The notes under the pieces are model-generated. The model worked only from the letters and a program-made list of their open reading frames with translations. It ran no database searches and was not told the origin of the DNA. A program made the position numbers and the translations under genes. From Desulfuromonadaceae bacterium (GTDB lineage Bacteria; Desulfobacterota; Desulfuromonadia; Geobacterales; Pseudopelobacteraceae), in NCBI GenBank assembly GCA_028712665.1, contig JAQTRC010000003.1, positions 12,927 through 76,926 on the forward strand: a stretch of 64,000 bases of DNA. The letters are read 5' to 3'. Shown here one piece after another: positions 11,705 to 54,772 of the stretch (within the stretch, counting starts at the first letter, position 1; every line of letters starts with the position of its first letter).

Positions 11705-13983
11705 CATCAGCCGATGCATCCCTGCAGACAACAGTTGTTCTCCGCATGACAGAACCGCCCCGCATCATCGAAGTCGCCATTCCACTTTATCTGGACAGGA
11801 CTTTTCACTATCTGGTGCCTGAGAGACTCCTGGCAGAGGCCCTGCCCGGCCGGCGCGCCCTGGTTCCGTTCGGGCGGCGAAAGCTGACCGGCTACATCCT
11901 GGGGAGTCCGGCAGAGTCACAGGTCGAGAAGCCGAAAGAAATTCTGGAAGTGTTGGACAGTGAGCCTCTCTGGACCGGGAATGAGTACGAGTTTTTCCGC
12001 TGGGTGGCGTCTTATTATATGCATCCTCTCGGAGAAGTTCTGAAGACGGCGCTGCCGGCAGGCATAAATGTGCAGAGCCGCAAAGGGAGCTCCGGAGAAA
12101 ATGCTGCGCTGACCGTCGGAAAATCTGCACGCCGCGAAAAATTCTATCTCCCTGGGCACGGCTTGGAGCCTGCCAGATCGCCCGGTTCGAAGGCGCTGGA
12201 AATACTGATGGTCATCCGCGAATCCGGCGACCTGCCGGCGGAGATACTGAGAAAGAGGTTCGGCAACCCTGCTCCACAGCTGAAGAGACTCTGCGAACTC
12301 GGATTGGTTTCGGTTGAAGAGCGGGAAGTATACCGCGATCCTTTCAAAAACCATACAGTGACTCGTGATGAACCTCGAATTCTGCATACACATCAAAAAA
12401 GAGCCCTTGAGGCCATTTCCTCCTCTCTTGACCTGAATAAGTTTATGCCATTTCTACTGTATGGAGTTACCGGCAGCGGCAAGACTGAAGTATATCTGCA
12501 AGCCATCTCTAACGCCCTTAACCATGGGAAAAGCGCCCTGGTGCTTGTGCCGGAGATTGCGTTGACACCGCAGCTGACCGGGCGTTTCCAGGCCCGCTTT
12601 GGAGGGGGTATCGCAATTTTGCACAGCGGTCTCTCCGATGGCGAGCGTTATGATGAATGGCGGCGCATCAGGCGCGGTCTGGCTCGGATTGTCATCGGCG
12701 CCCGTTCGGCCGTTTTCGCCCCCTTGGAAAAGATCGGCATCATCATTGTAGATGAAGAGCATGAAGCCTCCTTCAAACAATCGGACGGCTTACGCTACAA
12801 TGCCCGGGATCTCGCACTGCTGCGCGGCAGAATGGAGCGGGCTGCCGTAGTGCTCGGTTCGGCTACACCACTGGTCACCAGCATCCATGCTGCCGCCGAA
12901 GGGAGGCTGACGCTGCTGGAACTGCCGGAGCGGGTCGAGAAACGCCCGATGCCTTCGGTTGATCTGATTGATATGAAGGGGAGCAAGGAGACCATCTCGG
13001 CGCCGCTCGGATTATTACTGGCTCAAACGGTCGAAAGCGGCCAGCAGGCCATTGTATTTCTGAACCGGCGGGGATTCGCCACATTTCTGCTCTGTAACGA
13101 CTGCGGGAAGCTGCTGGCCTGTCCCAACTGCTCGGTCACACTCACCTATCATCGCCAGCGAGGCCAGAGCGTCTGTCATTACTGCGATTATTCCGTTCCT
13201 GCGCCAGGCACCTGTCCATCCTGTGCTGCTGCCGAACTCAAAGAGCTGGGCGCAGGTACTGAAAAACTGGAACAGAATCTGAGAGAACAGCTCCCCAATG
13301 CGCGGATACTCCGGATGGATAGCGACACTACCTCCGGCAAGGGAAGCCACGAGCGCCTCCTTTCAAAGATGAACGACGGCACGGCCGATATTCTGGTCGG
13401 CACTCAGATGATCGCCAAAGGGCATGATTTTCCCGGTGTGACCCTTGTCGGGGTTATCAACGCAGAGACGAGCCTGGGGATGCCTGACTTCAGGGCGGCA
13501 GAACGGACCTATCAGCTTCTCTCGCAGGTCATCGGTCGGGCCGGGCGCGGCGAGAAACCGGGCCGGGTGCTTCTCCAGGCTTATGACACGGAACATTACG
13601 CTATCCGCTCGGCCGCCTCGCATGACGCAGCCCGGTTTTACACCCAGGAGCTGGAATTTCGCCGTGAGGCCGGCTACCCACCGTTCACGTTTCTTGCTCT
13701 CCTCGGCATTTCAGGCCTTTCCGAACAGACGGTTTCCGAGCATGCAGAAGAGACAGCCAGACTTCTGGCTCGTATCAAACTGGATCTAAAGGTTCGTATC
13801 GAACTGCTCGGTCCGGCGCCCTCTCCAATCTATCGCCTTCGGGGGCGATACCGCCGCCAGATTCTTCTAAAAGCGGCGACACGCGCCGACCTGCATCGCC
13901 TGATTCTGACCTGGCGACAAAAATCATGCGCCGTTTCGACGATCCGGGTGACAGTTGATATCGATCCGGTTGATTTAATGTAA
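11701..13983 (+). CDS. priA: primosomal protein N' (replication restart helicase)
   Basis: 760 aa. Contains Walker A GVTGSGKTE, DEEH, Cys-rich zinc motifs (CNDCG..CPNCS..CHYC..CPSC) and a C-terminal domain. The start is uncertain (GTG at 11701 or ATG at 11746). Confidence 0.93.
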   Translation: MTSADASLQTTVVLRMTEPPRIIEVAIPLYLDRTFHYLVPERLLAEALPGRRALVPFGRRKLTGYILGSPAESQVEKPKEILEVLDSEPLWTGNEYEFFRWVASYYMHPLGEVLKTALPAGINVQSRKGSSGENAALTVGKSARREKFYLPGHGLEPARSPGSKALEILMVIRESGDLPAEILRKRFGNPAPQLKRLCELGLVSVEEREVYRDPFKNHTVTRDEPRILHTHQKRALEAISSSLDLNKFMPFLLYGVTGSGKTEVYLQAISNALNHGKSALVLVPEIALTPQLTGRFQARFGGGIAILHSGLSDGERYDEWRRIRRGLARIVIGARSAVFAPLEKIGIIIVDEEHEASFKQSDGLRYNARDLALLRGRMERAAVVLGSATPLVTSIHAAAEGRLTLLELPERVEKRPMPSVDLIDMKGSKETISAPLGLLLAQTVESGQQAIVFLNRRGFATFLLCNDCGKLLACPNCSVTLTYHRQRGQSVCHYCDYSVPAPGTCPSCAAAELKELGAGTEKLEQNLREQLPNARILRMDSDTTSGKGSHERLLSKMNDGTADILVGTQMIAKGHDFPGVTLVGVINAETSLGMPDFRAAERTYQLLSQVIGRAGRGEKPGRVLLQAYDTEHYAIRSAASHDAARFYTQELEFRREAGYPPFTFLALLGISGLSEQTVSEHAEETARLLARIKLDLKVRIELLGPAPSPIYRLRGRYRRQILLKAATRADLHRLILTWRQKSCAVSTIRVTVDIDPVDLM

Positions 13984-30636: not shown

Positions 30637-31386
30637 ATGATGATCATCTTCAACGGCGTGCATAAATGGTTTAAGAGCCTGCACGTCCTCAACGACATCA
30701 ACCTTCATGTGACCCAGGGGGAGGTTCTGGTGGTCTGTGGCCCGTCCGGATCCGGGAAATCAACCCTGATTAGAACCATAAACCAACTGGAACCGATCAA
30801 TGAGGGTTCTTTGATTGTTGACGGCAATAACCTCTCCGATAAAAAGACCGACATTAACAAACTGCGGGCAGAGATAGGCTTCGTTTTCCAGCAGTTTAAC
30901 CTCTATCCGCATCTCTCGGTTATCAATAACATTACACTGGCGCCGATCAAGATTCGCAAAATCCCCAAGGCAGAGGCTGAAAAACAGGCTATGGCACTTC
31001 TGGAACGGGTCGGTCTGGCCGAAAAACGAGACGCATACCCGCTACAGCTCTCAGGTGGACAGCAGCAGCGGGTTGCAATTGCCCGCGGCCTGGCGATGAA
31101 ACCCCGCATCATGCTTTTCGACGAGCCGACTTCGGCTCTCGACCCGGAGATGATTGGCGAGGTTCTGGCGGTAATGAAAGACCTTGCCCTTTCCGGCATG
31201 ACGATGGTGGTCGTAACCCACGAAATGGGCTTTGCCCGTGAAGTATCCCACCGGGTAGTTTTCATGGATTATGGAGTCATACTGGAAGAGGCGACTCCCG
31301 AAGATTTTTTCATGAGACCCAAACACGAACGAGCACAGCAGTTTCTGCGCCAACTCTTGACGCCGATGCAGGCTGGGTGTCCCTGA
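30637..31386 (+). CDS. polar amino-acid ABC transporter ATP-binding protein
   Basis: Walker [10 protein letters not shown], signature LSGGQQQR and Walker [13 protein letters not shown]. GlnQ/HisP-like. Confidence 0.93.
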
Positions 31387-31432
31387 TTCCGGTTTTCCGG
31401 AAATCTCAACCATCACTAAAGGAGGAAGCAAA

Positions 31433-32239
31433 ATGAAAAAACTGGCAATGTTGTTTATGATCATGGTTCTTGCGGCATTCACGTCCAAAGCCGCTCTGGC
31501 CGGTGACACTCTGGCGGACGCAAAGAAGAAAGGGGTTCTTGTAGTCGGCTGCAAGGATTCACTCCCCCCCTTCGGCTACATCGATGAGAAAACCCGCAAG
31601 ATCGTTGGCTACGATATCGATTTTGTAAACGCAATTGCCAAAAAAATGGGGGTCAAAGTCGAACTGAAGCCGGTTACCTCCGCCAGTCGCATGCCCCAGC
31701 TGCAGGAGGGTCACATCGACATCATTGCCGCTACCATGACAAAGAATGCCGAGCGCGCCAAGGTCATCGACTTCAGCCATACCTACTTCTTCACCGGGCA
31801 GAAATTCATCACCAAAAAGGGAAGTGTCAAGAGTCTGAAGGATCTCGAAGGAAAACGAATCGGCACCGCCAAAGGCTCCACCTCCGAACAGAACGCCAAA
31901 AAGGCTATCCCTACTGCAACAATTCTCTCATTTGACGACTATCCCCAGGCTTTGCTGGCATTGGAGCAGGGCAAGGTTCAAGCTGTGACAACAGATGAAT
32001 CGATACTGATCGGTATTTTGGACAAGGCGCCGGATAAGAGCAAATATGAGATTCCAAACATCCAGATTTCCGATGAGCCTTACGGACTCGGCATGCGCAA
32101 GGGTGACAAGAACCTCGTCGACTTTGTCAACAAGACGATCCTGGATATGGAGAAGAGCGGCGAAGCTGCCAAGATTTTCAACAAGTGGTTCAGCCAATAC
32201 AATCTGCATCGTTCCTTCAAGATCACGGCAGACAAATAG
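31433..32239 (+). CDS. amino-acid ABC transporter substrate-binding protein (family 3)
   Basis: 268 aa with a signal peptide and the SBP_bac_3 pattern (PPFGYIDE...GYDIDF). Confidence 0.88.
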   Translation: MKKLAMLFMIMVLAAFTSKAALAGDTLADAKKKGVLVVGCKDSLPPFGYIDEKTRKIVGYDIDFVNAIAKKMGVKVELKPVTSASRMPQLQEGHIDIIAATMTKNAERAKVIDFSHTYFFTGQKFITKKGSVKSLKDLEGKRIGTAKGSTSEQNAKKAIPTATILSFDDYPQALLALEQGKVQAVTTDESILIGILDKAPDKSKYEIPNIQISDEPYGLGMRKGDKNLVDFVNKTILDMEKSGEAAKIFNKWFSQYNLHRSFKITADK

Positions 32240-32311
32240 AAAACAGCTGAAGAAGCAGGTAGAGATAGAGAATAAGTTTTTCACTCTATCTCTACCTCCG
32301 AAGGGCGTCCT

Positions 32312-33019
32312 GTGCTCAACTACAAATTCGACTGGTCGATTATAACCTCCGGCAAGTATTTTGACTGGCTTCTATCCGGACTGGTGACGACTCTCAAGCT
32401 GTCGGCCATCTCGATCGTACTGGCCTTCATCCTGGGGCTCATAATTGCCGTCATGCGTATGGCGCATAACAAACCGCTCCGCTGGTTCGCTCACGCCTAT
32501 CTGGAGTTTTTTCGTAATACCCCGCTACTGGTGCAGATTTTCTTCTGGTATTTCGGATCCTATAAAATTCTTCCGACCGTTGTTAATGACTGGCTTAACG
32601 AAACCGGATTTGAATTCGCCGCTGCCGCCATCGCACTGACCATTTACACATCGGCCTTTATCGCCGAGGACATCCGCTCCGGTGTTCTATCAATACCGAA
32701 GGAACAGATGGAAGCCTCACGCAGCGCCGGTTTCTCTTATTTGCGGTCAATGCAGTACATCGTACTGCCGCAGGCGGTCCGCATTACGATTCCGCCACTG
32801 GTCAACCAGTTCCTCAATCTGGCCAAGAACTCTTCTCTTGCGATGACTATCGGCGTCATGGAGATGACCTATCAGGCCCGCCAGGTTGAAAGTTACACTT
32901 TCAAGGGTTTCGAGGCTTTTACCGCAGCAACGGTTGTCTATCTGGTTCTGTCGATCGTCATCACCTCTCTGGTCAATCTCTACAACGAAAAAGTTTTGAA
33001 CGTACACAAGGCGGCCTGA
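32312..33019 (+). CDS. amino-acid ABC transporter permease
   Basis: 235 aa of HisM/GlnP type with an EAA loop (EASRSAGFSYLRSMQYIVLPQA). GTG start. Confidence 0.88.
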   Translation: MLNYKFDWSIITSGKYFDWLLSGLVTTLKLSAISIVLAFILGLIIAVMRMAHNKPLRWFAHAYLEFFRNTPLLVQIFFWYFGSYKILPTVVNDWLNETGFEFAAAAIALTIYTSAFIAEDIRSGVLSIPKEQMEASRSAGFSYLRSMQYIVLPQAVRITIPPLVNQFLNLAKNSSLAMTIGVMEMTYQARQVESYTFKGFEAFTAATVVYLVLSIVITSLVNLYNEKVLNVHKAA

Positions 33020-33020
33020 T

Positions 33021-33719
33021 ATGGAACCGTTCTTAAATTTTTCGGTCATCACCGACAATTTCACCTACTTCATGATCGGTCGCTTTCCACACGGGCCACT
33101 CGGAGGGGTTGGATTAACGCTTTACCTCGCTTTTGTTTCCTGCATCCTCTCATTCTTCGGTGGTTTGATTCTGGGACTCTTAAGCATCACCCGCTTCCCT
33201 CTTGTTCGATATCCGGCCCTGGCATTCATAAACCTTGTCCGCGGCATGCCGCTTCTGATGGTCATCTTCTGGATGTATTTTTTGCTTCCGGCCCTATTCG
33301 GCAAGGTCGCTGAAAATAATACGGTCATTATGGCTTTGACCCTCTTCACTTCGGCCTACATGTCACGCATAGTGATAGCGGGCATAGAAGGGATTCCCAA
33401 AGGACAGACGGAAGCAGCCCTCTCAACCGGTCTCAAATCATGGCAGGTCATGTTATACGTGGTTCTTCCGCAGGGCCTCCGCAACATGATCCCCTCTTTT
33501 GTCAACCAGTTCGTCTCGCTGATAAAGGATACCTCACTGGCCTTCATCGTCGGCGTTTCCGAACTGACTCACGTCGCGACCCAGATCAACAACCGGACCA
33601 TGGCTTTCCCGACCGAGATATTCATCTTCATCGCCATCGTTTACTTCATCCTCTGCTTCGCCTTCACTACTCTTTCCCGCTGGCTGGAACAGCGCCTCTC
33701 CTGGTCCAAAGCCATTTAG
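33021..33719 (+). CDS. amino-acid ABC transporter permease
   Basis: 232 aa. Second permease paralog with an EAA loop (EAALSTGLKSWQVMLYVVLPQG). Confidence 0.88.
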   Translation: MEPFLNFSVITDNFTYFMIGRFPHGPLGGVGLTLYLAFVSCILSFFGGLILGLLSITRFPLVRYPALAFINLVRGMPLLMVIFWMYFLLPALFGKVAENNTVIMALTLFTSAYMSRIVIAGIEGIPKGQTEAALSTGLKSWQVMLYVVLPQGLRNMIPSFVNQFVSLIKDTSLAFIVGVSELTHVATQINNRTMAFPTEIFIFIAIVYFILCFAFTTLSRWLEQRLSWSKAI

Positions 33720-41773: not shown

Positions 41774-41839
41774 CTCGAAGCAACGGGGAATATACAACCC
41801 GACCTCGGCCCCTCTTTCCACGGAGGTTCCAGAAAGCGT

Positions 41840-42000
41840 CGGAATGGCAGGTTTCCTGGCTTCAGGGTCATCTTACTAGCCGCGCCTTCCCAAAATTACT
41901 TTCAGTGGCCGCTGCGGTTTTCATCGCCTGTTACAGTTGCGGGACAGCGAGGGGGTCGCACCCTCTTCCCTATTATCCGTGCCTTGAGCGGCACGGCACC
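41840..42000 (-). ncRNA. cobalamin (B12) riboswitch
   Basis: The minus strand contains AAUAGGGAAGAGGGUGCGA...CCCGCAACUGUAA, then GCCACUG...GGGAAGGCG, then the B12 box AGCCAGGAAACCUGCC. Confidence 0.9.
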
Positions 42001-42033
42001 AAAACCGTGTGTGATGTAACAATTGTAAGGAGG

Positions 42034-44701: not shown

Positions 44702-46645
44702 TCACTCCGCCTGCTGCATGACCCTCGATAATTCCGCCTCAAGCAGATTCATGCTGTACGGTTTCCGGATTAATCCGGAAGGGGCTTGACCGGTGGTGGT
44801 GCGCCCACCCAGTTCCTCTTCATTGAAGCCGCTGGCAAGGATTACCTTTGTGTCCGGCCTGATATTGTAAATTTCGTTCATCGCAGCTATTCCATCCATG
44901 TTCGGCATGGTCAGATCCATCAGAACGACAGCAATATCGTCCGAATGTTCACGGAATTTAGCGACCGCATCGACGCCGTCATGGGCGGTAATAACCCTGA
45001 AGCCGCAGAGCTTGACCATCTTGGTACAGACTTTAAGGACGGACTTTTCATCATCCACCACCAGGGCCAGACCGGAATGCGTGGTCAAAGGCATGGTGTC
45101 TATAACCGATGCAGACGTAACCTGTTCTTGATCCGTGGCAGGGAGTGAGGATTCCGAAACCGGGAACAGCGCCCTGAAGGTTGTCCCCTTGCCAGGTTTG
45201 CTCTCCACAAACAGGGCTCCGCGGTGTGTCCTCATTATCCCCATGACCGCCGACATTCCAAGTCCACGTCCGGTAAACTTCGTTGTAAAGAAGGGGTCGA
45301 AGATCAGTTTTATCGTTTCCTTGCTCATGCCGCAGCCGTTATCGCTGACCTCCAGGTACGCAAAGCGCCCCGGCAACGGTTTCTCCTCCAGCAGACTGGA
45401 GGCCAGAAAAGTTTGGTCGCAATCCTGGATGCCGGTGGTGAGCTTTATAATGCCCGGCTGCTCTTCAATCGATTCGGCGGCGTTGGTGATCAGATTCATC
45501 ACCACCTGCTGAATTTGGGCTTCACATGCCAAAATGGTCGGCAGTTCCGGAGAGAGGGACAGTTTCATCGAAGCGCCTGCCAGGACTACCGTATTAAGCA
45601 TTTCAGTATTATCCATGACCAGATGATTCAGGTTCACTTCCTCTTTGGTAATAAATCCGACGCCCACATAGGTCAGCATCAAGCTGGTAAGATGAGCTGC
45701 ATGCCTGCCCGAGTTCAAAGCATTTGCGAGATACTTTTGGGACTTCGAACTTGGAGCAAGCCCCATCGAGGCCAGCTCAATATTGCCGAGAATAGACTGC
45801 AAAAGGTTGTTGAAATCGTGGGCAATACCTCCCGCCATAACTCCCAGACTCTCCAGTTTCTGTGTTTGCAACATCTGACGTTCAAGATTCAAACGCTCTT
45901 CCTGGAGGCGGGAATTCTCCTCGCTTCGTTGTTGCAATTCGGTAGCCAGGTTATTGACGGCAACAGCCGCCCGACCCGGTTCATCATTGGTTACAATGTT
46001 GATCCGGGAGGTAAAGTCACCGTTATGCACGGCCTCTATTCCCTTCATAAGGGCATTAAAAGAGCCGGTGACCTGACGTAATACAATATGGCAGAACAGG
46101 GATACCGTCAGCCAGAAGAGAAAGGAAATGCTGACGGAGAATATAATCACATTGCGGACAGCAGCTGACAGGTCGGCCGTTCCACGCACAATTCGCACGG
46201 TTCCGATCTTGGTTCTGGAAGCTTCATGGCCACCGGTAAAGGATGAATCGACCGAATAGGTCAGGGGGTTACTGAACACTTCCACCGTTTGGCTTATCAA
46301 CCCGATTGATTTGGAATCGTCCGGCGAACCGACGAAGGCCAGGAGTTTGCCATCCGGATCGTTGATTACTACCGCGCTGATTTCCGGAGCCTGAGCCGCC
46401 CTCTCTGCCAACTGCCTCAGCAGATCGCGATTTCCGGCATACAGCGGAAGCCTGGCGGACTCGCCCAATTGCTCCGTACGCAGCTTGAGCTGTTCGTTAG
46501 CTGCGAGTCGTTTTTCTTGAATTACAGAGACAATGTACAGAAAGCACAACGTGCAGGCGATCAGAAAGGTCAGCAGGGAAAATATCGAGAAGAGTTTGAA
46601 TTGAAAACTGGATCGAAAGCTTGACGATCGTTCTGGTGGTGACAT
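44702..46645 (-). CDS. hybrid sensor histidine kinase (TM, periplasmic domain, TM, HAMP, HisKA, HATPase_c, REC)
   Basis: 647 aa. Two TM helices flank a ~140-aa periplasmic segment. H-box GGIAHDFNNLL, G-box GRGLGMS and a C-terminal receiver (LVVDDE...LMDLTMPNMDG). Confidence 0.9.
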   Translation of the reverse strand: MSPPERSSSFRSSFQFKLFSIFSLLTFLIACTLCFLYIVSVIQEKRLAANEQLKLRTEQLGESARLPLYAGNRDLLRQLAERAAQAPEISAVVINDPDGKLLAFVGSPDDSKSIGLISQTVEVFSNPLTYSVDSSFTGGHEASRTKIGTVRIVRGTADLSAAVRNVIIFSVSISFLFWLTVSLFCHIVLRQVTGSFNALMKGIEAVHNGDFTSRINIVTNDEPGRAAVAVNNLATELQQRSEENSRLQEERLNLERQMLQTQKLESLGVMAGGIAHDFNNLLQSILGNIELASMGLAPSSKSQKYLANALNSGRHAAHLTSLMLTYVGVGFITKEEVNLNHLVMDNTEMLNTVVLAGASMKLSLSPELPTILACEAQIQQVVMNLITNAAESIEEQPGIIKLTTGIQDCDQTFLASSLLEEKPLPGRFAYLEVSDNGCGMSKETIKLIFDPFFTTKFTGRGLGMSAVMGIMRTHRGALFVESKPGKGTTFRALFPVSESSLPATDQEQVTSASVIDTMPLTTHSGLALVVDDEKSVLKVCTKMVKLCGFRVITAHDGVDAVAKFREHSDDIAVVLMDLTMPNMDGIAAMNEIYNIRPDTKVILASGFNEEELGGRTTTGQAPSGLIRKPYSMNLLEAELSRVMQQAE

Positions 46646-46749: not shown

Positions 46750-47616
46750 CTAAAAACCATCCCCTTCGACTGATTGTCCCAGACGCTTCAACACAACGGG
46801 ATTGCTCCTGGGTATAATATTTTTCGGAAAAGCAAGCGGTATGCTGCCAATAGGGTCGCCGTTCAGAATCGCCGAGACCATGGCGCTGGCCTGACGCCCC
46901 AGGCTGATTCGGTCTATTTCAAGGACGACCGCCGCACCCAGCCCCAGATAATTGCCGGCAAAAGAGACGACCGGTATGGCCTGATCCTGTCCGAAACGGA
47001 AATATGCCTCGGTTGTTTCCCTGGTCACCGCTGTGCTGTCCGGCAGCATCCAGAGAGCATCCACCTTGCGGTCCAGCGTCGAAAGCCGTTCTATTGTCTC
47101 ACGGGGTTCGGATATTTCGCGGGTCACCAGTTCGATTCCGGTCGCTTCGGCGGCCTTGCGGGCCAGATGAAGGTACCAGCCGCTCCTGGCCGGATTGTAG
47201 ATTACGCCTACGCGTCTGGTTTTCATGGCCTGGAACATTCTGATACTGCGTTCCGGATGAACGAACATACCGATGCCGGTCAGGTTGGGGTGTAAAGCCT
47301 TCCGGCCATGGATGCCGAGCGACATTACGGTTACCACCGGAGTCTGCGGAACCTTGCGGGCCACTGTCAGGGCGGCGTCCCCCACGGCGAGTATCAGCGT
47401 CGGACGATCCTCGCGCACAATCCGGACAATATCCACCTCGGCATAGTCGGAGAGCACGATCACCCGACGTGAGACGGCACTATCGGCGCGGAAGCCCTTC
47501 AGCACCTCATCGTAGGCCTGATCGCGGCGACTCTGGAGCACCAGGACGTCATAGGCCTGGGCCAGAGAGGGGAGCAGGGTCGCCAGGGCGAGTATCAGAG
47601 AGACAAGGTATCTCAT
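46750..47616 (-). CDS. orphan periplasmic binding protein, ABC_sub_bind (PF04392/COG2984)-like, copy 1
   Basis: 288 aa with a signal peptide. Motifs NLTGIG, RRVGVIYNP, VDALWMLPD and IPVVSF match the ABC_sub_bind pattern. There is no permease or ATPase nearby. 1-nt overlap (TGATG) with the receptor gene. Confidence 0.75.
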   Translation of the reverse strand: MRYLVSLILALATLLPSLAQAYDVLVLQSRRDQAYDEVLKGFRADSAVSRRVIVLSDYAEVDIVRIVREDRPTLILAVGDAALTVARKVPQTPVVTVMSLGIHGRKALHPNLTGIGMFVHPERSIRMFQAMKTRRVGVIYNPARSGWYLHLARKAAEATGIELVTREISEPRETIERLSTLDRKVDALWMLPDSTAVTRETTEAYFRFGQDQAIPVVSFAGNYLGLGAAVVLEIDRISLGRQASAMVSAILNGDPIGSIPLAFPKNIIPRSNPVVLKRLGQSVEGDGF

Positions 47617-49451
47617 CAGAAGCTCACCCTCATTCCGCCTTCGAACCAGCGGCCGGGATTCGGAACCATATCATACTGGTACTGACCGTTGCTGAAGAGG
47701 TTCCGGCCGGAGAAGAACAGTTCCAGCGAACTGTTCTCGCGCTTGAAGAGGATCGCCCCCAGGTGCAGATCCCACAGCAGACCGCCGTAACGAGGGTTGT
47801 CTCCCGGCATGGAGTTCCAGTTGATATGGCTGCCGGTCAAGAGGGCGCGATAGGTTTTGTCGTCATACCGCAGGGAGAGTTTGACGGTGTGACGCGGGGC
47901 ATAATTGACCTGCGCGCCGTCGCTGCTGCGGGTGGTGTCTACGAAGGTGTATCCGGCCCCTAGTGAGGTATTCCAGAGCGGGGTGGTGCGGAGTTCGGCC
48001 TCAGCCCCCAAGGCTTCGTGCCGTTCCACATCCTTCCCCCATGTCTCATTGCGGAAGACGGTTCCCTTCAGCCAGAGATAGGGTACTGAGGTGCTCTCCA
48101 TGCCGATCTGGGTGGTCCAGATCTTCTCCGATGGCTTGTCCACGTCAAGAAACTGAGGCACGCCATAGCCACGGGCGGCATAGGCCCGCAGCATGGTAGT
48201 CTCGCTGGCCTGCCAGGTGCCCCCCAAAGAGTAGCTGTACTGGTCCCCTGCGGTCTGGGTGTGGTCGAAGCGGACTCCGGGGGTGACGCTGAAGCTCCCC
48301 AGCGTGACGGTGTCGTTCAGGTAGGCGCCCCAACGATCGGCAGCCCTGCTGAAAGGACTGTAGGTTGAACCGTCCATGGTGTTGCTGTTATTCTCCAGAT
48401 GGCTGTAGTCGCCACCCGTCACCAGCAGGTCATTATCCCCGCGCCGGACCAGTTTGATACTGGCGCCGCTGACCTGGTTGCTGAAACTGCCGGTGGGGAG
48501 ATCGGGCTGCCAAGTGAGGCCATCGCTGATGTTGAACCAGGAAGTATCGCCTTTCAGAAATGAGTGGCGAGCGCTGAATTCCAATTCCAGCCGCTCGCTG
48601 AGCGGCTGGCGCAGGCCGATGTTGGCGAAGAGCAGGCTTTTGTCCTGATTCTCCTTCAGATCATAGGCCGGGATGAAGAGATCCCCCTGCCTGATCTGGC
48701 TGCGGTTGAAGGTGGCGTAGAGCCGGCCGCTGCCGGGGAGATCCCAGGTCAGTCGGGCATGGGCGTTGGTGGAGGCGTTCTGGGTATTGGGGAGGATGCC
48801 GTTGCTCCCCAGGAAACCGCCCGATAGGTAGTACCCCAGTCTTCCGCTGCTGCCGGAGAGTTCCAGGGAACTGTCGGCGGTGGTCCGCTCGCCGATGGAG
48901 GCGCTGGCAGTGCCGGAGAGGGTGCGGTCTTGCACCGGAGCCTTGGTGATAACGTTGATCACCCCGGCCAGGGCCGAGCCCCAGGCCGCAGAAGCAGCTC
49001 CTTTGACGATCTCGACCCGCTCGATGATCCGGGCCGGAATCAGGGTGGTTTCGGAGTAATTGTCCCCAAGATTGGTTATTGAGAGCCCGTCCACAAAGAC
49101 CTGGACGTGTTGGAAGCTGGAACTTTGGATAAAAGTGTAGGCGGTGATGCCGGGACCGCCGTTGTGCAAAACCTGGATGCCGGGGATTGTATCGAGAATG
49201 TCGGCCAGGGTATGGGCGTTCATGGCCGCGATGTCGGCGAAGGTTATAACGGTGACGTTCTCGGCGGTCTGGGAGAGCGGCTTGGGGGCGCGGCTGGCTG
49301 TGGAGGCGCTCTCCTGCCAGGCGCTGAACAGTTCGAGGGTATCCTCGTCGTCCGGCTCGGCGGCTAAAACCGTACAGGGCAGGAGCACGATCATCAACCA
49401 GATGACAGAAAACAATCCCCGCAGGGTATGTAAAGGTGAGAAATTTGACAT
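47616..49451 (-). CDS. TonB-dependent outer-membrane receptor, copy 1
   Basis: 611 aa with a signal peptide, a plug domain (ENVTVIT...IERVEIVKGAASAAWGS), a beta-barrel and a terminal Phe. Confidence 0.9.
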   Translation of the reverse strand: MSNFSPLHTLRGLFSVIWLMIVLLPCTVLAAEPDDEDTLELFSAWQESASTASRAPKPLSQTAENVTVITFADIAAMNAHTLADILDTIPGIQVLHNGGPGITAYTFIQSSSFQHVQVFVDGLSITNLGDNYSETTLIPARIIERVEIVKGAASAAWGSALAGVINVITKAPVQDRTLSGTASASIGERTTADSSLELSGSSGRLGYYLSGGFLGSNGILPNTQNASTNAHARLTWDLPGSGRLYATFNRSQIRQGDLFIPAYDLKENQDKSLLFANIGLRQPLSERLELEFSARHSFLKGDTSWFNISDGLTWQPDLPTGSFSNQVSGASIKLVRRGDNDLLVTGGDYSHLENNSNTMDGSTYSPFSRAADRWGAYLNDTVTLGSFSVTPGVRFDHTQTAGDQYSYSLGGTWQASETTMLRAYAARGYGVPQFLDVDKPSEKIWTTQIGMESTSVPYLWLKGTVFRNETWGKDVERHEALGAEAELRTTPLWNTSLGAGYTFVDTTRSSDGAQVNYAPRHTVKLSLRYDDKTYRALLTGSHINWNSMPGDNPRYGGLLWDLHLGAILFKRENSSLELFFSGRNLFSNGQYQYDMVPNPGRWFEGGMRVSF

Positions 49452-49539
49452 GGCGTTAGCGTTAGCGTTGTAGTATACATATTTCAGTCCGGTTGTCCAC
49501 CGGTTATGTTATGTAAATCCACACGCAAGGGGGGTGAAC

Positions 49540-49644
49540 ATGATGCAGGAAACACACGAGGAACTGTTGGTGCTGGAAGAGGGCCACGAGGTTGGTGTTG
49601 TAAATTCGTGCTGCTCGGCAGCGCAAAATGCAAAGCTCAAGTAG
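49540..49644 (+). CDS. candidate RiPP precursor peptide (34 aa, not in ORF track)
   Basis: Ribosome-binding site AAGGGGGG ends 5 nt before the ATG. Translation: MMQETHEELLVLEEGHEVGVVNSCCSAAQNAKLK, i.e. an acidic leader-like half and a Cys-Cys core-like half. It is divergent from receptor copy 1 and on the same strand as the rSAM/SPASM gene. Confidence 0.5.
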   Translation: MMQETHEELLVLEEGHEVGVVNSCCSAAQNAKLK

Positions 49645-49787: not shown

Positions 49788-50093
49788 TTATGCGGCTTTC
49801 ATCGGGTGTTCCTTCAAGTATGTCCGCAGCGCCTCATTCATGCGAGTCTGCCAGCCTTTGCCGGTAGACTTGAAAGTCGTGAGAATATCCCGGTCAAGCC
49901 GAACTGTCTGCAGCTCTTTAACGCCGCTGCCCAGCTTGCGGCCTGATTTGGGCGCCAGCATCCCGTCCGCAACTTCTTTGCCTAAAATCTCATGCAGCAC
50001 TTCCCGTGCAGGCCGGGCATTTTTGAAATCCTCGGCAGTCCATTCCGGGTTTTCGTCATCAATCAAGCATGGATTCGGTTTGGTTGTTGCCAT
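49788..50093 (-). CDS. brnA: BrnA-family antitoxin
   Basis: 101 aa. The C-terminus VRLDRDILTTFKSTGKGWQTRMNEALRTYL matches the BrnA RHH-like pattern. Confidence 0.8.
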   Translation of the reverse strand: MATTKPNPCLIDDENPEWTAEDFKNARPAREVLHEILGKEVADGMLAPKSGRKLGSGVKELQTVRLDRDILTTFKSTGKGWQTRMNEALRTYLKEHPMKAA

Positions 50094-50346
50094 GTTCTTT
50101 TACCTCTCTATTGTTAGCTTTTCTAAGACTTATGACGTGAATCCCGCCGTTTCTGGGAGTTATCACCGCAACATGCAGACGCTCACCAATATAACCAAAA
50201 ACCCTGAAGCGTCTTTCGCCATAATCCTTTCGGGTGTCTTCTCTGACTACGGAATTATCCCAGTCGATACTTGCAAACAGCTCGAAAGAAAGGCCGCGCT
50301 CTTCAATGTTTCTGCTGTTTTTGACTTCATTATAAGTAATCTTCAC
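50059..50346 (-). CDS. brnT: BrnT-family (DUF497) ribonuclease toxin
   Basis: 95 aa. The pattern N..ERGLSFE...DYGERRF...HVISLRKAN is typical of BrnT. Overlaps brnA by 35 nt. Confidence 0.8.
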   Translation of the reverse strand: MKITYNEVKNSRNIEERGLSFELFASIDWDNSVVREDTRKDYGERRFRVFGYIGERLHVAVITPRNGGIHVISLRKANNREVKEHGNNQTESMLD

Positions 50347-50375
50347 AACAATATTTGTAACAACATATTCAACTC

Positions 50376-51740
50376 ATGTCAATGGAGAAAACCCGGGCTG
50401 CAACCCGTTGCAACCCATCATTACCACCGATCGAAAGGGCATCGTCCATGGAACTTACCCACTACCACAAAATCTACCCCATACCTGACAAACCGGGGCG
50501 GCTGCTGCTGGTCGCCACCCGTCGCTGCTCTCTTCTTGAGCTTTCCGAGGCGCTGTGGGACAAGCTCTGCAACGGCGGCGAGCTGACCCAAAAGGAACTG
50601 GAGACTTTTATCCGCCTGGGGGTGCTGGTGGAAAGCCGCGCCGACGAACGGGAAGAGATGCGGGGCACCTTTGACACCATAAACAGCTCAAGCCGACGCT
50701 TTGAGGTGACGGCGGCCCTGACCCTGGAGTGCAATCTGGCCTGCCCCTACTGTTTCGAAGATCCCTTCCGGGGGCGTTTCGTGATGAGCGCGGAGACCGC
50801 CGGCCTTCTGGTGCAGCTCCTCTGCGAGCGGATGTCCGCCGGTCTGGATGTATTGGTGGATTTCTACGGCGGCGAGGCTTTGATGCGGCTCGATCTGCTG
50901 CGGGGGATCGCCGCGCGCTTGAAGGATGCAGCCAGCCTCCACGGAGTAACCTTTGCCTTCAACCTCTTCTCCAACGGTGTCCTGCTGACCCGCAACGTGG
51001 TGGAGGAACTGCTGCCGCTGGGGCTGGCGGCGGTGCGGACAACCCTGGACGGCCCCCCCGACATCCACGACGCCCAGCGTCCGTTCGTCTCCGGCAAGGG
51101 GAGTTTTGACGTTATCCTGAAAAACCTGGTCTCGGTGCATGATATAGTGGCGCTGGATCTTGGGGGGAACTACACCTGCGAGAATTACCGCCGCTTCCCC
51201 GAGCTGCTGGATATCATGTTGGAGGCGGGAATCGACCCAGCACGGCTGAAAGGGGTCGATTTTTCGCCGGTCATGCCGAAGGCGGACGGCAGCGTGTCCG
51301 GCGATTTCGGTTCCGCCTGCGCATGTACGGGAGAGGCATGGGTAATTGAGGCCAACCTGTTTCTGCGGGATGAAATCATCCGGCGTGGCTTCCCGACTTC
51401 AAAGCTTCAGGCGAGCGCCTGCATGATCGAGTTCGCCAACGATATCGTGGTGGGATATGATGGTTCGTTCTATAAATGCCCGGTGTTCATGGGAGACCAG
51501 GAGATGCGGGTAGGGAGTCTGGCCGAGGGGATAGGCGACTACCGCCAATCCCACAACATGGACGTCTGGAAGAGCGACGAATGCCTGGAGTGCGCCTATC
51601 TGCCGCTCTGCTTCGGCGGCTGCCGATTCTTTCGCAAGTTGAAGAGCGGAGCGATCGATGGTGTTGACTGTCGCCGAACGATGCTGGACGCCTCGCTGGA
51701 GCGGATCGTCCGGCAGGATCTGTCGTTGAAGCGGCAGTAG
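50376..51740 (+). CDS. radical SAM/SPASM-domain peptide maturase
   Basis: CNLACPYC (CX3CX2C). SPASM motifs CX13GX4C (CMIEFANDIVVGYDGSFYKC) and CX2CX5CX3C (CLECAYLPLCFGGC). About 70 aa of RRE/PqqD-like N-terminal domain. The likely true start is the ATG at 50448 (MELTHYHKIYP). Confidence 0.88.
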   Translation: MSMEKTRAATRCNPSLPPIERASSMELTHYHKIYPIPDKPGRLLLVATRRCSLLELSEALWDKLCNGGELTQKELETFIRLGVLVESRADEREEMRGTFDTINSSSRRFEVTAALTLECNLACPYCFEDPFRGRFVMSAETAGLLVQLLCERMSAGLDVLVDFYGGEALMRLDLLRGIAARLKDAASLHGVTFAFNLFSNGVLLTRNVVEELLPLGLAAVRTTLDGPPDIHDAQRPFVSGKGSFDVILKNLVSVHDIVALDLGGNYTCENYRRFPELLDIMLEAGIDPARLKGVDFSPVMPKADGSVSGDFGSACACTGEAWVIEANLFLRDEIIRRGFPTSKLQASACMIEFANDIVVGYDGSFYKCPVFMGDQEMRVGSLAEGIGDYRQSHNMDVWKSDECLECAYLPLCFGGCRFFRKLKSGAIDGVDCRRTMLDASLERIVRQDLSLKRQ

Positions 51741-51877
51741 TTTGTTCAGCGATTCCCTTATAGAAGAATTCCATCTCTGGCCGGTTGTCCGGAGCGCTCG
51801 TTCCCGGGATTCTACATTTGTATGACTTTAACGAATTGGTATCATGGCCTGATTGCCCGCTGCAACTAAAAACCACC

Positions 51878-52735
51878 CTACTCGACTGATTGCCGGAGGC
51901 GCTTCAATACAACGGGATTACCTTTGGGCATTATGTTTTTTGGAAAAGCAAGCGGTCTGCTGCCGATAGGATCGTCCTCAAAAATTGCCGAGATCAGGGC
52001 GTTGGCCTGACGCCCCAGGCCGATTCGGTCTATTTCTAGCACGGCAGCTGCGCCAAGTTCCAGATAAGTTGCTGCAAAGGATACCACCGGCACACCCAGA
52101 TCCTGACCGAATCGGAAATAGGCCTCGGTTGTTTCCCGGGTAATGGCGGTAGTGTCAGGGATCATCCAGAGCGCATCCACTTTGTCCGCCAGGGAAGAGA
52201 TTTGGGCCAGCGTCTCGGATGATCTTGAGACCTCGCGGGTCACCAGTGTTATTCCGGCCGCCTGTGCCGCATTTTGAGCAAGCCGCAGGTACCAGCCGCT
52301 TTTGGCTGGATCGTAGATAAGGCCAACCCGCCTGGCTTTCATGCTCTTGAAAATGCTGATGTAGCGTTCCGGCGAAACGAACATACCGATGCCGGTCAGA
52401 TTGGAACGTGAAGACTTTTTGTCATGAATTCCGAGCGCCATAAGAGCGACCACCGGGATATGCTGTACCTTGCAGGCCTCTTTCAAGGCGGCGTCCCCCA
52501 AGGCCAGGATTAGCCTGGGGCGATCCTCGCGCACAATCCTGGATACGTCCAGATAGGAGTAATCGGAGAGCACCATCAGGCGGTAGCTGGCACTGTTCCC
52601 GGCACGGAAGCCTTTCAGCGCCTCCTCGTAACCGGTGTCGCGCCGACTCTGCAGCACCAGCACGTCGTAAGCCTGGGCAATGGTGGGGAGCAGGGTCGCC
52701 ATGGCGAGTATGATATAGATTAAGAGGGCTCGCAT
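51878..52735 (-). CDS. orphan periplasmic binding protein, ABC_sub_bind-like, copy 2
   Basis: The ATG at 52735 gives MRALLIYIILAMATLLPTIAQA, a signal peptide, with the same 1-nt TGATG overlap as copy 1. Collinear with copy 1 along the whole length, roughly two-thirds identical by eye. Confidence 0.75.
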   Translation of the reverse strand: MRALLIYIILAMATLLPTIAQAYDVLVLQSRRDTGYEEALKGFRAGNSASYRLMVLSDYSYLDVSRIVREDRPRLILALGDAALKEACKVQHIPVVALMALGIHDKKSSRSNLTGIGMFVSPERYISIFKSMKARRVGLIYDPAKSGWYLRLAQNAAQAAGITLVTREVSRSSETLAQISSLADKVDALWMIPDTTAITRETTEAYFRFGQDLGVPVVSFAATYLELGAAAVLEIDRIGLGRQANALISAIFEDDPIGSRPLAFPKNIMPKGNPVVLKRLRQSVE

Positions 52736-54606
52736 CAGAACTTCACCCTTAATCCGCCTTCGAACCATCGGGGAGCATTTACGCGGTAATCATCTGTGTA
52801 TTGAGCGTTATTGAAGAGATTGCGCCCGGAGAAAAACAGTTCCGACTCCACGCCTGCGCAATTTGGGAGCTTTTGCGAGATGTGAAGATCCCACTCCATC
52901 TGCCTGTCGTGGACGCTGTTCCCGGCATCGGACGGCCAGTTGACATGCGAACCGGTAATGTTTGCCTGAAACCCTCTCCTGACATTGTCATAGTGGAGGG
53001 CAATCCTTGTGGAACTGATCGGGATATACGGAATGCGGAGATCGGTTTTTTTGTCCCGAACGTCACTGTAAGTGTAGCCTGCTCTAAGGGAGAAGTCATA
53101 AAAGGGGACTGTGCGCCCTTCGATTTCAAATCCCCGTCTTACCTCCTTGGTTTCGGCGCTGCCAATCGCTGACATAGGGTAGTCCGACGGGACAACGAAG
53201 CTCTGAATGTTCCAGGTGTAACTGTAAAAGAGAGTCCCTTTCAGCCAGAGCAACGGGATGTCACTGGTTTCAATCCCGGACTGCAAGGTAAAGATATTCT
53301 GCAGGCTGTCCTTAAAGTTAGTCATGGGGAGGCTGTATCCCCTCGCAGCATAGGCACGGAGCAGAGTCTTCTCCGTAAACTGCCAGGTTGCCCCAAGATG
53401 GTAACTGGTTGCAACTTGTTCATTATCTCCGATATGGTCTAACCGTACCCCCGTCAGCAAGGTCAGATCGCCGATGGAATAGCTTCCATTAACATATGTC
53501 CCGTAGCGATTCATGTCCCGGTTGAAATTCATGTAGGAAAATCCGAGTAGCGGTTCACTGACGGAGACTTTGTCATGCAGATACTCAAACCCGGCAGCCA
53601 GATTGGTTCTGCGGTCTCCCCAGGTGAGTTTGGCGGCAACCTGTTCCGAATCGGTCCGATTCTTTGCATCAACTATCGTGATGGCTTCAGACATGATGTA
53701 CTTTCGCCAGATATCTTTCCTCATTACAGAAGAAAAGAGTTCCAGGTTGAGCCGGTCATTTATCGGGTATTCGAATCTAAGATACGCGGACGCATAGCGT
53801 GAACCGGTCGGAACAAGAGTATCAGGCATTATAGACGCATTATCGTAACCATAGTTGAACTCCCTGTCGCGGTAGTCGGCGGCAAATGTCAGCCTCCCCT
53901 TGTTAGGCAAGTCATAGGTTAACTTGCCAATGCCGTGATTAAGGGTAACCATGTTCCCCGGACGCAACCCGTTGGAGTTGAAACGACCGCCATCTATATA
54001 ATAACCCAGCCTCCCCTTTTTACCGCTTACTCCGCCACGCAGATCCGAAGTTCCGAGATCCCCGTAAGAGGCCGAAGCGATCCCTTTCAGATTTGCGTTC
54101 TCCGGATCACGCGTGATAACATTTACCGCACCTCCAAGCGCCGGGCCCCAGGCGACAGACGCAGCACCCTTGACAATCTCGATCCGTTCTATCCGCTGGA
54201 CCGGGATCATCCCGAGATCGGGGCTGTCATCCACCCCGAAGAGGTTCTGTGGAACACCATCGATCAGAAGCAGAACCTGATTGTTCATCGCGCCGTTAAT
54301 TGTAAATGCTACCGCACTACCCGGCGTCCTCATCTGGAAAAGCTGGATACCGGAGACCGTCTGCAGCACCTCATCCAGGGTATGGGCATTTATGCGGGCT
54401 ATGTCGTCCGCTGTGATTACCGTGACGTTTTCGGCGATTAAAGACGCGGGGCGGGGGATTTTGTAAGAAGGAATGTTTGTATCTTTACCATCACCGTCAA
54501 GGCCAAGGGCGCTTTCCACGGCATTATCTTCTCCCCGGGCCGGAAAAGCAGTCAATGCCGGGCAGAGCAGCAGAAACAACAGCAGCAGCCTTGTGGGAAA
54601 TCTCAT
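52735..54606 (-). CDS. TonB-dependent outer-membrane receptor, copy 2
   Basis: About 623 aa from the ATG at 54606 (the ORF track uses TTG at 54612). Signal peptide, plug (ENVTVIT...IERIEIVKGAASVAWG), barrel and terminal Phe. Confidence 0.9.
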   Translation of the reverse strand: MRFPTRLLLLFLLLCPALTAFPARGEDNAVESALGLDGDGKDTNIPSYKIPRPASLIAENVTVITADDIARINAHTLDEVLQTVSGIQLFQMRTPGSAVAFTINGAMNNQVLLLIDGVPQNLFGVDDSPDLGMIPVQRIERIEIVKGAASVAWGPALGGAVNVITRDPENANLKGIASASYGDLGTSDLRGGVSGKKGRLGYYIDGGRFNSNGLRPGNMVTLNHGIGKLTYDLPNKGRLTFAADYRDREFNYGYDNASIMPDTLVPTGSRYASAYLRFEYPINDRLNLELFSSVMRKDIWRKYIMSEAITIVDAKNRTDSEQVAAKLTWGDRRTNLAAGFEYLHDKVSVSEPLLGFSYMNFNRDMNRYGTYVNGSYSIGDLTLLTGVRLDHIGDNEQVATSYHLGATWQFTEKTLLRAYAARGYSLPMTNFKDSLQNIFTLQSGIETSDIPLLWLKGTLFYSYTWNIQSFVVPSDYPMSAIGSAETKEVRRGFEIEGRTVPFYDFSLRAGYTYSDVRDKKTDLRIPYIPISSTRIALHYDNVRRGFQANITGSHVNWPSDAGNSVHDRQMEWDLHISQKLPNCAGVESELFFSGRNLFNNAQYTDDYRVNAPRWFEGGLRVKF

Positions 54607-54772
54607 CTGCAAGGAAAAACCTCTAAGTTTTGATTACTTGATTGATATGACCTAACACAACTGGTGGCAAGTTGTCCAGTGCATATGATATTATTCAAAA
54701 AATTGGTGCTACTGCTGCGTAAAGAATATAATGGCGATACTAATCTTTCTGCAAGCATGATATATAATCCTG

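Follow-up and report, generated by a model that had tools for sequence, protein, structure and literature searches.

The stretch of DNA analyzed here (64,000 nt, positions 12,927 to 76,926 of contig JAQTRC010000003.1 in assembly GCA_028712665.1 of a Desulfuromonadaceae bacterium, referred to as the window) harbors two gene pairs, each encoding a TonB-dependent receptor (TBDR) followed by a substrate-binding protein (SBP), which flank the genes for a small precursor peptide and its radical S-adenosylmethionine (SAM) maturase. Pair 1 is followed by the gene for a hybrid sensor histidine kinase. Both pairs belong to a widespread, previously undescribed bacterial cassette, and the features of the window on which its description relies are the following:

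44702..46645, minus strand: hybrid sensor histidine kinase (transmembrane segment 1, periplasmic stretch of ~125 aa, transmembrane segment 2, HAMP, HisKA, HATPase, REC)
46750..47616, minus strand: SBP1, PF04392 binding protein of 288 aa
47616..49451, minus strand: TBDR1, 611 aa, Plug and barrel domains (Pfam), no signaling extension
49472..49499, minus strand: promoter-like site of the TBDR1 operon, TGGACA-16-TATACT (consensus scan)
49540..49644, plus strand: geopeptide-type precursor MMQETHEELLVLEEGHEVGVVNSCCSAAQNAKLK, 34 aa (translation)
50376..51740, plus strand: geopeptide radical-SAM/SPASM maturase (TIGR04280, 637 bits against a cutoff of 400)
51818..51877, minus strand: remnant of the SBP-kinase spacer 3' of SBP2 (three-way alignment of the regions downstream of SBP1, SBP2 and the SBP gene of the related locus L088, and blastn)
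51878..52735, minus strand: SBP2, PF04392 binding protein of 285 aa, no kinase behind it
52735..54606, minus strand: TBDR2, Plug and barrel domains (Pfam), 1-nt overlap with SBP2
54650..54680, minus strand: promoter-like motif upstream of TBDR2, CTGGACAAC...TGTTAGGTC, of the same type as that before TBDR1

Both pairs have the organization that the initial annotation had assigned to them, all four genes are intact, and in each the stop codon of the receptor gene runs into the start codon of the SBP gene: the junction of pair 1 reads ...TTCTGATGAGA..., with one base common to the TGA of TBDR1 and the ATG of SBP1, and the same TGATG overlap is found in pair 2. The binding proteins are collinear and highly similar, as had been noticed from a set of short motifs, all of which are present; SBP1 and SBP2 share 69% identity over 281 residues in an ungapped alignment (E 8e-146). 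Both receptors carry the plug (PF07715) and barrel (PF00593) domains of TonB-dependent receptors; they are 37% identical (E 1e-110) and fall into different old clades of the receptor tree, TBDR1 into clade D and TBDR2 into clade A. The earlier description of the pairs as tandemly duplicated had to be abandoned, since the synonymous divergence (dS) is 0.78 between the SBP genes and ~1.9, that is, saturated, between the TBDR genes, since the receptors belong to different clades, and since pair 2 is a copy of a larger unit that lacks its kinase. The pairwise comparison that had been suggested at the same time yielded ratios of nonsynonymous to synonymous divergence (dN/dS) of 0.26 for SBP2 versus SBP1 and 0.32 for TBDR2 versus TBDR1, and both pairs are thus under purifying selection.

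A search for the receptor/PF04392/kinase triad across genomes, likewise suggested beforehand, revealed that the cassette recurs in ~95 related loci, which are designated L followed by a number where they have to be told apart. A contig scan with a single SBP gave 3 loci and a metagenome scan with an SBP alignment gave 80; relatives of the window proteins were located in the collected loci by tblastn, as a word-indexed search with the N-terminal 196 residues of the kinase returned 5 proteins, too few for a survey. The counts for TBDR and sensor genes given below refer to loci with enough sequence. SBP1 has 554 close homologues, mostly in metagenome bins of Desulfuromonadaceae and Geobacteraceae. 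A TBDR gene lies directly 5' of the SBP gene in 61/67 loci, four more being scored as absent only through the overlap of the two genes, and 56 of 84 junctions read TGATG, the others overlapping by 4 or 13 nt. The identical 1-nt overlap of both window pairs, although real, is therefore an inherited family trait and not an independent coincidence. A sensor whose first ~195 residues resemble those of the window kinase is encoded 3' of the SBP in 51 of 73 loci; in 6 more its gene is divergent and lies upstream of that for the TBDR. The output part of the sensor varies (hybrid kinase, plain kinase, PAS-containing kinase) and its N-terminal domain persists. A TIGR04280 maturase gene is divergent and adjacent in 37/58 loci. 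The whole cassette is present in a cultured species, Oryzomonas sagensis (L093, VZRA01000003.1), where the SBP gene shares 4 nt with the kinase gene and a sigma-54 response regulator is encoded next to them, and at L094 the genes for TBDR, SBP, histidine kinase and response regulator form a tight operon. Relatives of the SBP at 29-37% identity (L094, L095-97) still keep a homologous TBDR and kinase and have no maturase, which makes the triad of TBDR, SBP and kinase the older and wider unit, with the peptide genes attached to one of its branches. At L078 (606-1239), one short contig, the match to the SBP breaks up into two stretches (606-692 and 733-1239), and this SBP gene may have been pseudogenized by a frameshift or deletion.

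The cassette consists of two co-evolving units, one formed by TBDR and maturase and the other by SBP and the sensor domain. In the close group, defined as the loci with an SBP at least 55% identical to SBP1, pairwise identities of TBDR and maturase are correlated with r=0.92 and those of SBP and the N-terminal sensor domain with r=0.86 (0.81 across all loci), whereas TBDR and SBP give r=0.21 despite their overlapping genes; all of these coefficients are uncorrected for shared ancestry, and linkage contributes to them. A corresponding boundary appears where closely related genomes have recombined. Flanking DNA is 94-99.8% identical between L046 and L051 and ~90% identical between L011 and L012, whereas in both cases the enclosed block of maturase, precursor and TBDR genes is at ~40-60%; the SBPs of these two locus pairs are 94-96% identical and their TBDRs 38-39%. 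Five locus pairs combine an SBP identity of at least 80% with a TBDR identity of at most 42%. The right breakpoint of the swaps is located within the final ~100 nt of the TBDR gene, from where the DNA is homologous again, and the breakpoints thus repeatedly part two genes that overlap, TBDR and SBP. In turn, the same type of TBDR and maturase is found on different SBP/kinase backgrounds (L011/L046 and L012/L051). The maturase-precursor-TBDR block is swapped as one allele among closely related genomes.

Known pherotype loci, such as staphylococcal agrBDC and Bacillus comQXP, comprise a polymorphic block of precursor, modifying enzyme and specificity-determining receptor. At L011/L012, L046/L051 and the five locus pairs, precursor, modifying enzyme and receptor similarly co-vary on a conserved background, and the block moves as a single allele and recurs on the backgrounds of different species, as it does there. 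In contrast to these systems, however, the polymorphic receptor is an outer-membrane TBDR and not the sensor domain of a kinase, and kinase and SBP lie outside of the variable block. This is the pattern of a signal and its receptor that are exchanged together as one allele while the transduction module stays constant, and it is chiefly because of the allele swaps and the two units that we read the TBDR as the receptor for the peptide product and the SBP as the partner of the kinase.

The peptides themselves support a link to the receptors. Adjoining the maturases, 44 small open reading frames (ORFs; 41 distinct) were found, all built on one plan: a leader of the form LxV(L/I)xEG is joined by a short linker to an invariant Cys-Cys, in rare cases CxC, behind which a tail of 7-12 residues follows. 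Three classes of tail can be told apart, CC..(T/S)..AK(L/I), CC.GG..S(A/T)RK, and CC followed by a hydrophobic tail, and these classes follow the TBDR clades. With its LxVLEEG leader and the invariant CC, the window precursor resembles 43 precursors from related loci, and TBDR1 belongs to the clade that accompanies CC..AKL-type precursors, with 60-65% identity to the receptors of L006, L020 and L093, whose precursors are similar. The model TIGR04229 ('geopeptide') recognizes the second class, as in the class-b peptide of L011 (38.3 bits, cutoff 30), and gave no match to the window precursor; since its leader and CC motif match those of the recognized class, the window precursor represents a diverged class missed by TIGR04229. 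The maturase is a clear member of TIGR04280. Its match starts at residue 25 of the ORF, and the true start is likely the ATG at 50448. Its nearest other families are thioether-forming SPASM maturases, among them CefB, PapB and the SCIFF maturase, and the matured product is therefore likely to be thioether-bridged. The two geopeptide models cover peptide and enzyme only, but neither receptor, SBP and kinase nor the polymorphism of classes nor the class of the window precursor. No second precursor was found in the window, where there is one such ORF in all and none near pair 2. A search of a library of papers on geopeptide, TIGR04280, PF04392/ABC_sub_bind with TonB, or the triad returned no matching paper (gene-context remarks by database curators lay outside its scope), and one on COG2984 returned only irrelevant papers.

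It might be argued that the triad detects an unrelated cue, an environmental small molecule such as an aromatic amino acid-like compound or a metal chelate, and controls production of a peptide with its site of action elsewhere; TBDR, precursor and maturase would then have been replaced together through linkage only. The triad is indeed widespread without a maturase, so that the peptide is not needed, the SBP does not co-vary with the peptide class, and its fold and family point to ligands of the amino acid type. We nevertheless consider this explanation unlikely, since the recombination boundaries repeatedly enclose exactly maturase, precursor and TBDR and exclude the overlapping SBP gene, and since TBDR clades match the tail classes of the precursors across species backgrounds, a pattern to be expected of a signal and its receptor, as in the pherotype loci.

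Both binding proteins had been assigned to PF04392, and this assignment held: with a gathering cutoff of 25.9 bits, SBP1 reaches 57.3 and SBP2 54.8 (251 bits for a canonical member linked to an ATP-binding cassette (ABC) transporter), and the AlphaFold2 model of SBP1 (pLDDT 84.6) has the type I periplasmic binding-protein fold of the solved members. Its best fold matches are CD0873, 3LFT and 3LKV, with a Foldseek E value of 2.5e-16 to 6HNJ, and a profile search matched 3LKV, 6HNI and 3LFT; the solved PF04392 proteins closest to the model (6HNJ, 3LFT and 3LKV) hold Tyr, Trp or Phe, and two specificity residues have been named for the family (PMC6816091). The model also matches LuxP in complex with LuxQ (1ZHH, 1JX6) and XylFII in complex with LytS (5XSD), both of which are binding proteins that work as co-sensors of kinases. 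SBP1 carries a Sec signal peptide (..SLAQA/YD) and lacks the Cys of a lipobox. It shares Pfam family and fold with the SBPs of canonical PF04392 importers, TrpX of Streptococcus, CD0873 of C. difficile and VC_1101. However, those proteins are lipoproteins, whereas the SBPs described here are predicted to be secreted and soluble, are always paired with a TBDR, match the family model weakly (55-57 versus 251 bits) and have no BPD_transp_2 permease or ATPase alongside.

The kinase directly after pair 1 is a hybrid kinase with HAMP, HisKA, HATPase and REC domains, as had been stated, albeit with a periplasmic stretch of ~125 aa instead of ~140 aa. An AlphaFold2 model of its residues 1-240 (pLDDT 75, from a shallow alignment) suggests a long helix and a four-strand PDC/PAS-like sheet, and Foldseek related the periplasmic part to the extracellular domain of WalK and to the periplasmic domain of CdgS9, a LapD-like protein (LapD orthologue). 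WalK and LapD-type domains bind partner proteins. A remote homologue of the sensor gave a weak match to sCache_4. The earlier proposal that the binding proteins are co-sensors and not transport parts finds support in the comparative evidence: sensor and SBP are genetically coupled and evolve jointly, as in LuxPQ-type systems (sensor adjacent in 57/73 loci, r=0.81-0.86, 4-nt overlap at L093), an ABC ATPase is encoded within 4 kb in only 2 of ~88 loci, and the fold is shared with LuxP and XylFII. The SBPs thus look like partners of the sensor and not like components of ABC transport, their contact with the kinase being predicted from genes and models.

No cognate ABC transporter was found in the window, as already noted in the initial annotation. 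The sole ABC importer in the 64 kb (30637..33719) belongs to the SBP_bac_3/BPD_transp_1 type and comes with a binding protein of its own, and a search limited to the window found neither a PF04392-type ABC importer nor a permease of the BPD_transp_2 type, the type that partners PF04392 proteins. Still, the genes might serve an uptake system resembling that for methanobactin, in which the peptide would be a secreted metallophore or cofactor precursor, imported by the TBDR and handed by the SBP to an unlinked ABC importer, while the kinase would only regulate genes and pair 2 would pirate a foreign variant. The methanobactin operons, with a cluster for a ribosomally synthesized and post-translationally modified peptide (RiPP), pair the TonB-dependent transporter MbnT with the binding protein MbnE without an ABC partner in the operon, the inner-membrane partner of MbnE being unknown (PMC7558416). 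Further, the PF04392 proteins characterized so far are components of ABC importers (PMC6816091, PMC9382623), the invariant Cys-Cys of the precursors could bind metal, and the TBDR-SBP pair has no adjacent sensor at some loci (L013, L033, L034, L041 and L087). At L047 (3983-6799), a TBDR2-type pair directly precedes an SBP of the canonical PF04392 kind (251 bits) along with a BPD_transp_2 permease and an ABC ATPase, an arrangement that could be chance or a hint that some pairs feed an importer; it is the only locus whose TBDR-SBP pair adjoins a complete canonical PF04392 importer, and this importer has its own canonical SBP, as opposed to the ~57 bits of the TBDR-linked subfamily. Unlike the proteins of the window, MbnE is OppA-like and not a PF04392 member, there is no adjacent SBP-coupled kinase regulating the methanobactin genes, maturation proceeds by MbnBC instead of a radical SAM/SPASM enzyme, and no link to metal was found here. 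As an ABC ATPase nearby is so rare and the window has no BPD_transp_2 permease, as the SBP co-evolves with the sensor domain and not with TBDR or peptide, and as some genomes couple the translation of SBP and kinase genes, uptake appears to be an improbable explanation.

The origin of pair 2 could be traced by comparison with L088, a contig of 2.4 kb. Its receptor shares 93% of its residues with TBDR2, and the DNA of the two is 93-100% identical. Identity between L088 and the TBDR2-SBP2 DNA drops to 70-85% at 50-80 nt into the SBP gene, where the recombination breakpoint relative to L088 is located. The L088 SBP gene is followed by the same spacer as that of SBP1 and then by the start of an orthologous kinase, MSPPE, like that of the window, and the TBDR2 type therefore holds the normal triad position in this relative. 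In the window, ~55 nt past the SBP2 stop codon are homologous to the spacer between SBP1 and the kinase, and homology then ends. Because this piece of spacer remains, pair 2 is to be regarded as a triad of which the kinase was not copied or not retained; it did not arise as a tandem duplicate of pair 1. The closest relative of SBP2 is P0010, the SBP of L088 (79%), the only protein among 5.8e9 that is closer to it than SBP1. Recent gene conversion between SBP1 and SBP2 was not supported, as their dS of 0.78 is similar to that of SBP1 and its orthologues (0.70-0.80).

As to why two diverged copies should exist, two roles had been put forward, recognition of apo versus loaded peptide and recognition of self versus non-self peptide. 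No evidence in favor of the former was found. The latter fits better, as receptors of the TBDR2 type in clade A occur at L007, L009 and L047, where there is neither a precursor nor a maturase, and as the window has a single precursor. Alternatively, pair 2 might be a functionless, decaying leftover of recombination. It has no kinase and ends inside of a former SBP-kinase spacer, the branch leading to SBP2 is longer than that leading to SBP1, and none of the other loci among the ~95 has a second pair within 10 kb. Such a relic is nonetheless very unlikely: both ORFs of pair 2 are intact and of full length, the dN/dS values given above indicate purifying selection, SBP2 retains all 54 invariant columns of the subfamily alignment, the 1-nt coupling and the promoter-like motif are preserved, and the DNA identity of TBDR2 to the L088 copy argues that it is maintained.

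Taken together, we propose the following mechanism, to which as a whole we would assign a probability of about 0.5. The core cassette comprises a precursor and its maturase, divergent from an operon that encodes TBDR, SBP and a sensor kinase whose periplasmic domain is small and PDC/sCache-like. The matured peptide, or a derivative of it, would leave the cell and be recaptured by the cognate TBDR with energy from TonB, the TBDR acting as the specificity-determining, peptide-specific gate. In the periplasm the ligand would be bound by the SBP, which as a co-sensor would dock on the periplasmic domain of the kinase and switch the phosphorelay, as LuxP does for LuxQ, with no ABC importer involved. 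Pair 1 would be the resident gate and co-sensor for the genome's own peptide. Pair 2, a triad copy of an alternative type taken up or retained without its kinase, would most likely feed the single resident kinase (a second sensor of this type is not found in the window) and, as a second gate, would allow a response to a non-self class of ligand that the cell does not make.

Several observations weigh against this mechanism. The PF04392 proteins characterized to date serve the ABC import of free aromatic amino acids, which they bind (PMC6816091, PMC9382623). Identities of core peptide and SBP are correlated with r=0.21 only; if the SBP binds the peptide, it would have to recognize a feature common to all classes, or else it does not bind the peptide at all. 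TBDR, precursor and maturase genes are physically adjacent, and linkage alone adds to their co-inheritance. TBDRs are, moreover, often hypervariable for other reasons, for example under pressure from phages or bacteriocins. The pairs without an adjacent sensor and the importer at L047 also belong here, and the kinase-domain model was built on 6 sequences. Fusions of SBP and sensor were absent among the top 150 representatives. Neither an exporter nor a leader peptidase is a conserved part of the cassette among the related loci, and that the peptide is secreted is thus an assumption.

Some individual loci bear on these last two points. One long match, P0172, was considered as an SBP-sensor fusion and rejected, since it consists of four tandem PF04392 domains without a sensor. 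At L093 (1-1162), ~9 kb 5' of the O. sagensis cassette, a 612-aa histidine kinase with a faint N-terminal PF04392 match is encoded, which may be a fusion of binding domain and kinase, its N-terminus lying beyond the sequence examined. Genes for ABC2_membrane and ABC_tran proteins are located just past the kinase in L095 (8980-10460), L096 and L097, and genes for a 497-aa protein without Pfam domain and an ABC_tran protein in L089 (7736-10418) and L020; these exporter-like genes are candidates for ligand exporters, although not family-wide.

A bolder reading, which we regard as possible but rather doubtful when taken as a whole, is that the cassettes constitute a Gram-negative peptide-pheromone system on a new principle. 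A radical-SAM-modified peptide would be sensed only after TonB-powered passage through a type-specific receptor and would then be relayed by a periplasmic PF04392 protein to a histidine kinase. Populations would carry interchangeable 'pherotype' cassettes of signal, maturase and receptor, an extra pair such as pair 2 would eavesdrop on a pherotype that is not produced, and the peptide-free triads with SBPs at 29-37% identity would represent a broad, unrecognized class of TonB-gated two-component sensors.

Among known systems, the proposed mechanism comes closest to LuxP/LuxQ, as well as XylFII/LytS, TorT/TorS and ChvE/VirA, in which a type I binding protein without a transporter of its own is encoded next to a membrane kinase; the small PAS/PDC-like periplasmic domain of the window kinase is shared with LuxQ-type kinases. 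It differs in that the binding protein is a PF04392 member whose contact with the kinase is predicted, that a ribosomal peptide and its maturase are linked to the system, and that a dedicated, translationally coupled TBDR gene lies upstream, for which reason the ligand presumably exceeds the size that porins admit. The system might thus be regarded as a new combination of known kinds, with co-sensing of the LuxP/LuxQ type behind a TonB-dependent gate. If this holds true, it would add a new input route for two-component systems, in which ligands excluded by porins are actively admitted by a dedicated TBDR, and PF04392 proteins, thought to serve only ABC importers, would present a ligand to a kinase. 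It would also offer a possible role for the 'geopeptide' RiPPs, a family named in databases without a known role, in a system found commonly among metal-reducing bacteria of the Geobacter type. Swapping of signal, maturase and receptor alleles on a fixed sensor background is a signature of strain-level recognition systems, which to our knowledge is not known for TBDRs coupled to kinases. With O. sagensis (GCA_008802355.1) a cultured carrier exists, and the peptides are short enough to be made.

A role of the receptors as BtuB, the vitamin B12 receptor, was rejected. With TIGR01779, the model for BtuB, TBDR1 scores 105 bits and TBDR2 89 bits against a cutoff of 600, the match of TBDR1 being mainly to the plug, and TBDR1 remains far below the cutoffs of the NCBIfam siderophore-receptor models. 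A transducer of the FecA/FpvA type was rejected for both receptors, since only Plug and barrel and no STN domain are found at E<=0.01 and since the neighbors are an SBP and a histidine kinase instead of a sigma/anti-sigma pair.

With respect to expression, a motif of the form CTGGACAA-N15-17-TGYTA is located ~45-55 nt 5' of the TBDR start in ~30 of 66 loci and precedes both pairs of the window. A shared operator, GGACAAC, was initially considered, which resolved into this promoter-like -35/-10 motif, with no clear regulator site. For TBDR2 the ORF lister extends the gene to a TTG at 54612; the ATG at 54606 is the better start because of an AGAGG ~13 nt upstream. Three head-to-tail copies of GCGTTA (49453..49470) abut the annotated start codon of TBDR1, and as no obvious ribosome-binding site is present there, the real start may be located further downstream.

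Further observations concern the surroundings of the cassette in the window and elsewhere. At L039 (1568-5966) two tandem TIGR04280-type maturases, 65% and 60% identical to the window enzyme, are encoded 5' of a single TBDR-SBP-sensor operon. Genes for a 336-aa radical-SAM protein and a PCMT-type methyltransferase, absent from the window, lie 5' of the triad at L007 (6280-7946), L009, L020, L089 and L003 (79-100% identity to the L007 pair) and mark a common chromosomal site; at L020 the geopeptide genes are located between this gene pair and the TBDR, and at L007 and L089 they are missing. A cobalamin riboswitch (41829..42018, minus strand, 114 bits), the sole one of the window, is located upstream of an operon for cobU, cobT and a ThiC-like radical-SAM protein (41576 down to 38627); as it belongs to this operon and not to the receptors, it likewise argues against a BtuB role. 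Between precursor and maturase genes, which are ~0.8 kb apart, a toxin-antitoxin pair is inserted on the opposite strand:

49788..50093, minus strand: BrnA antitoxin (Pfam PF14384)
50059..50346, minus strand: BrnT toxin (Pfam PF04365)

These genes are not part of the peptide/receptor system. At other loci the precursor gene is directly upstream of that of the maturase, and because BrnA/BrnT splits the two here, the window maturase probably needs a promoter of its own. A promoter-like site is present at 50342..50369.

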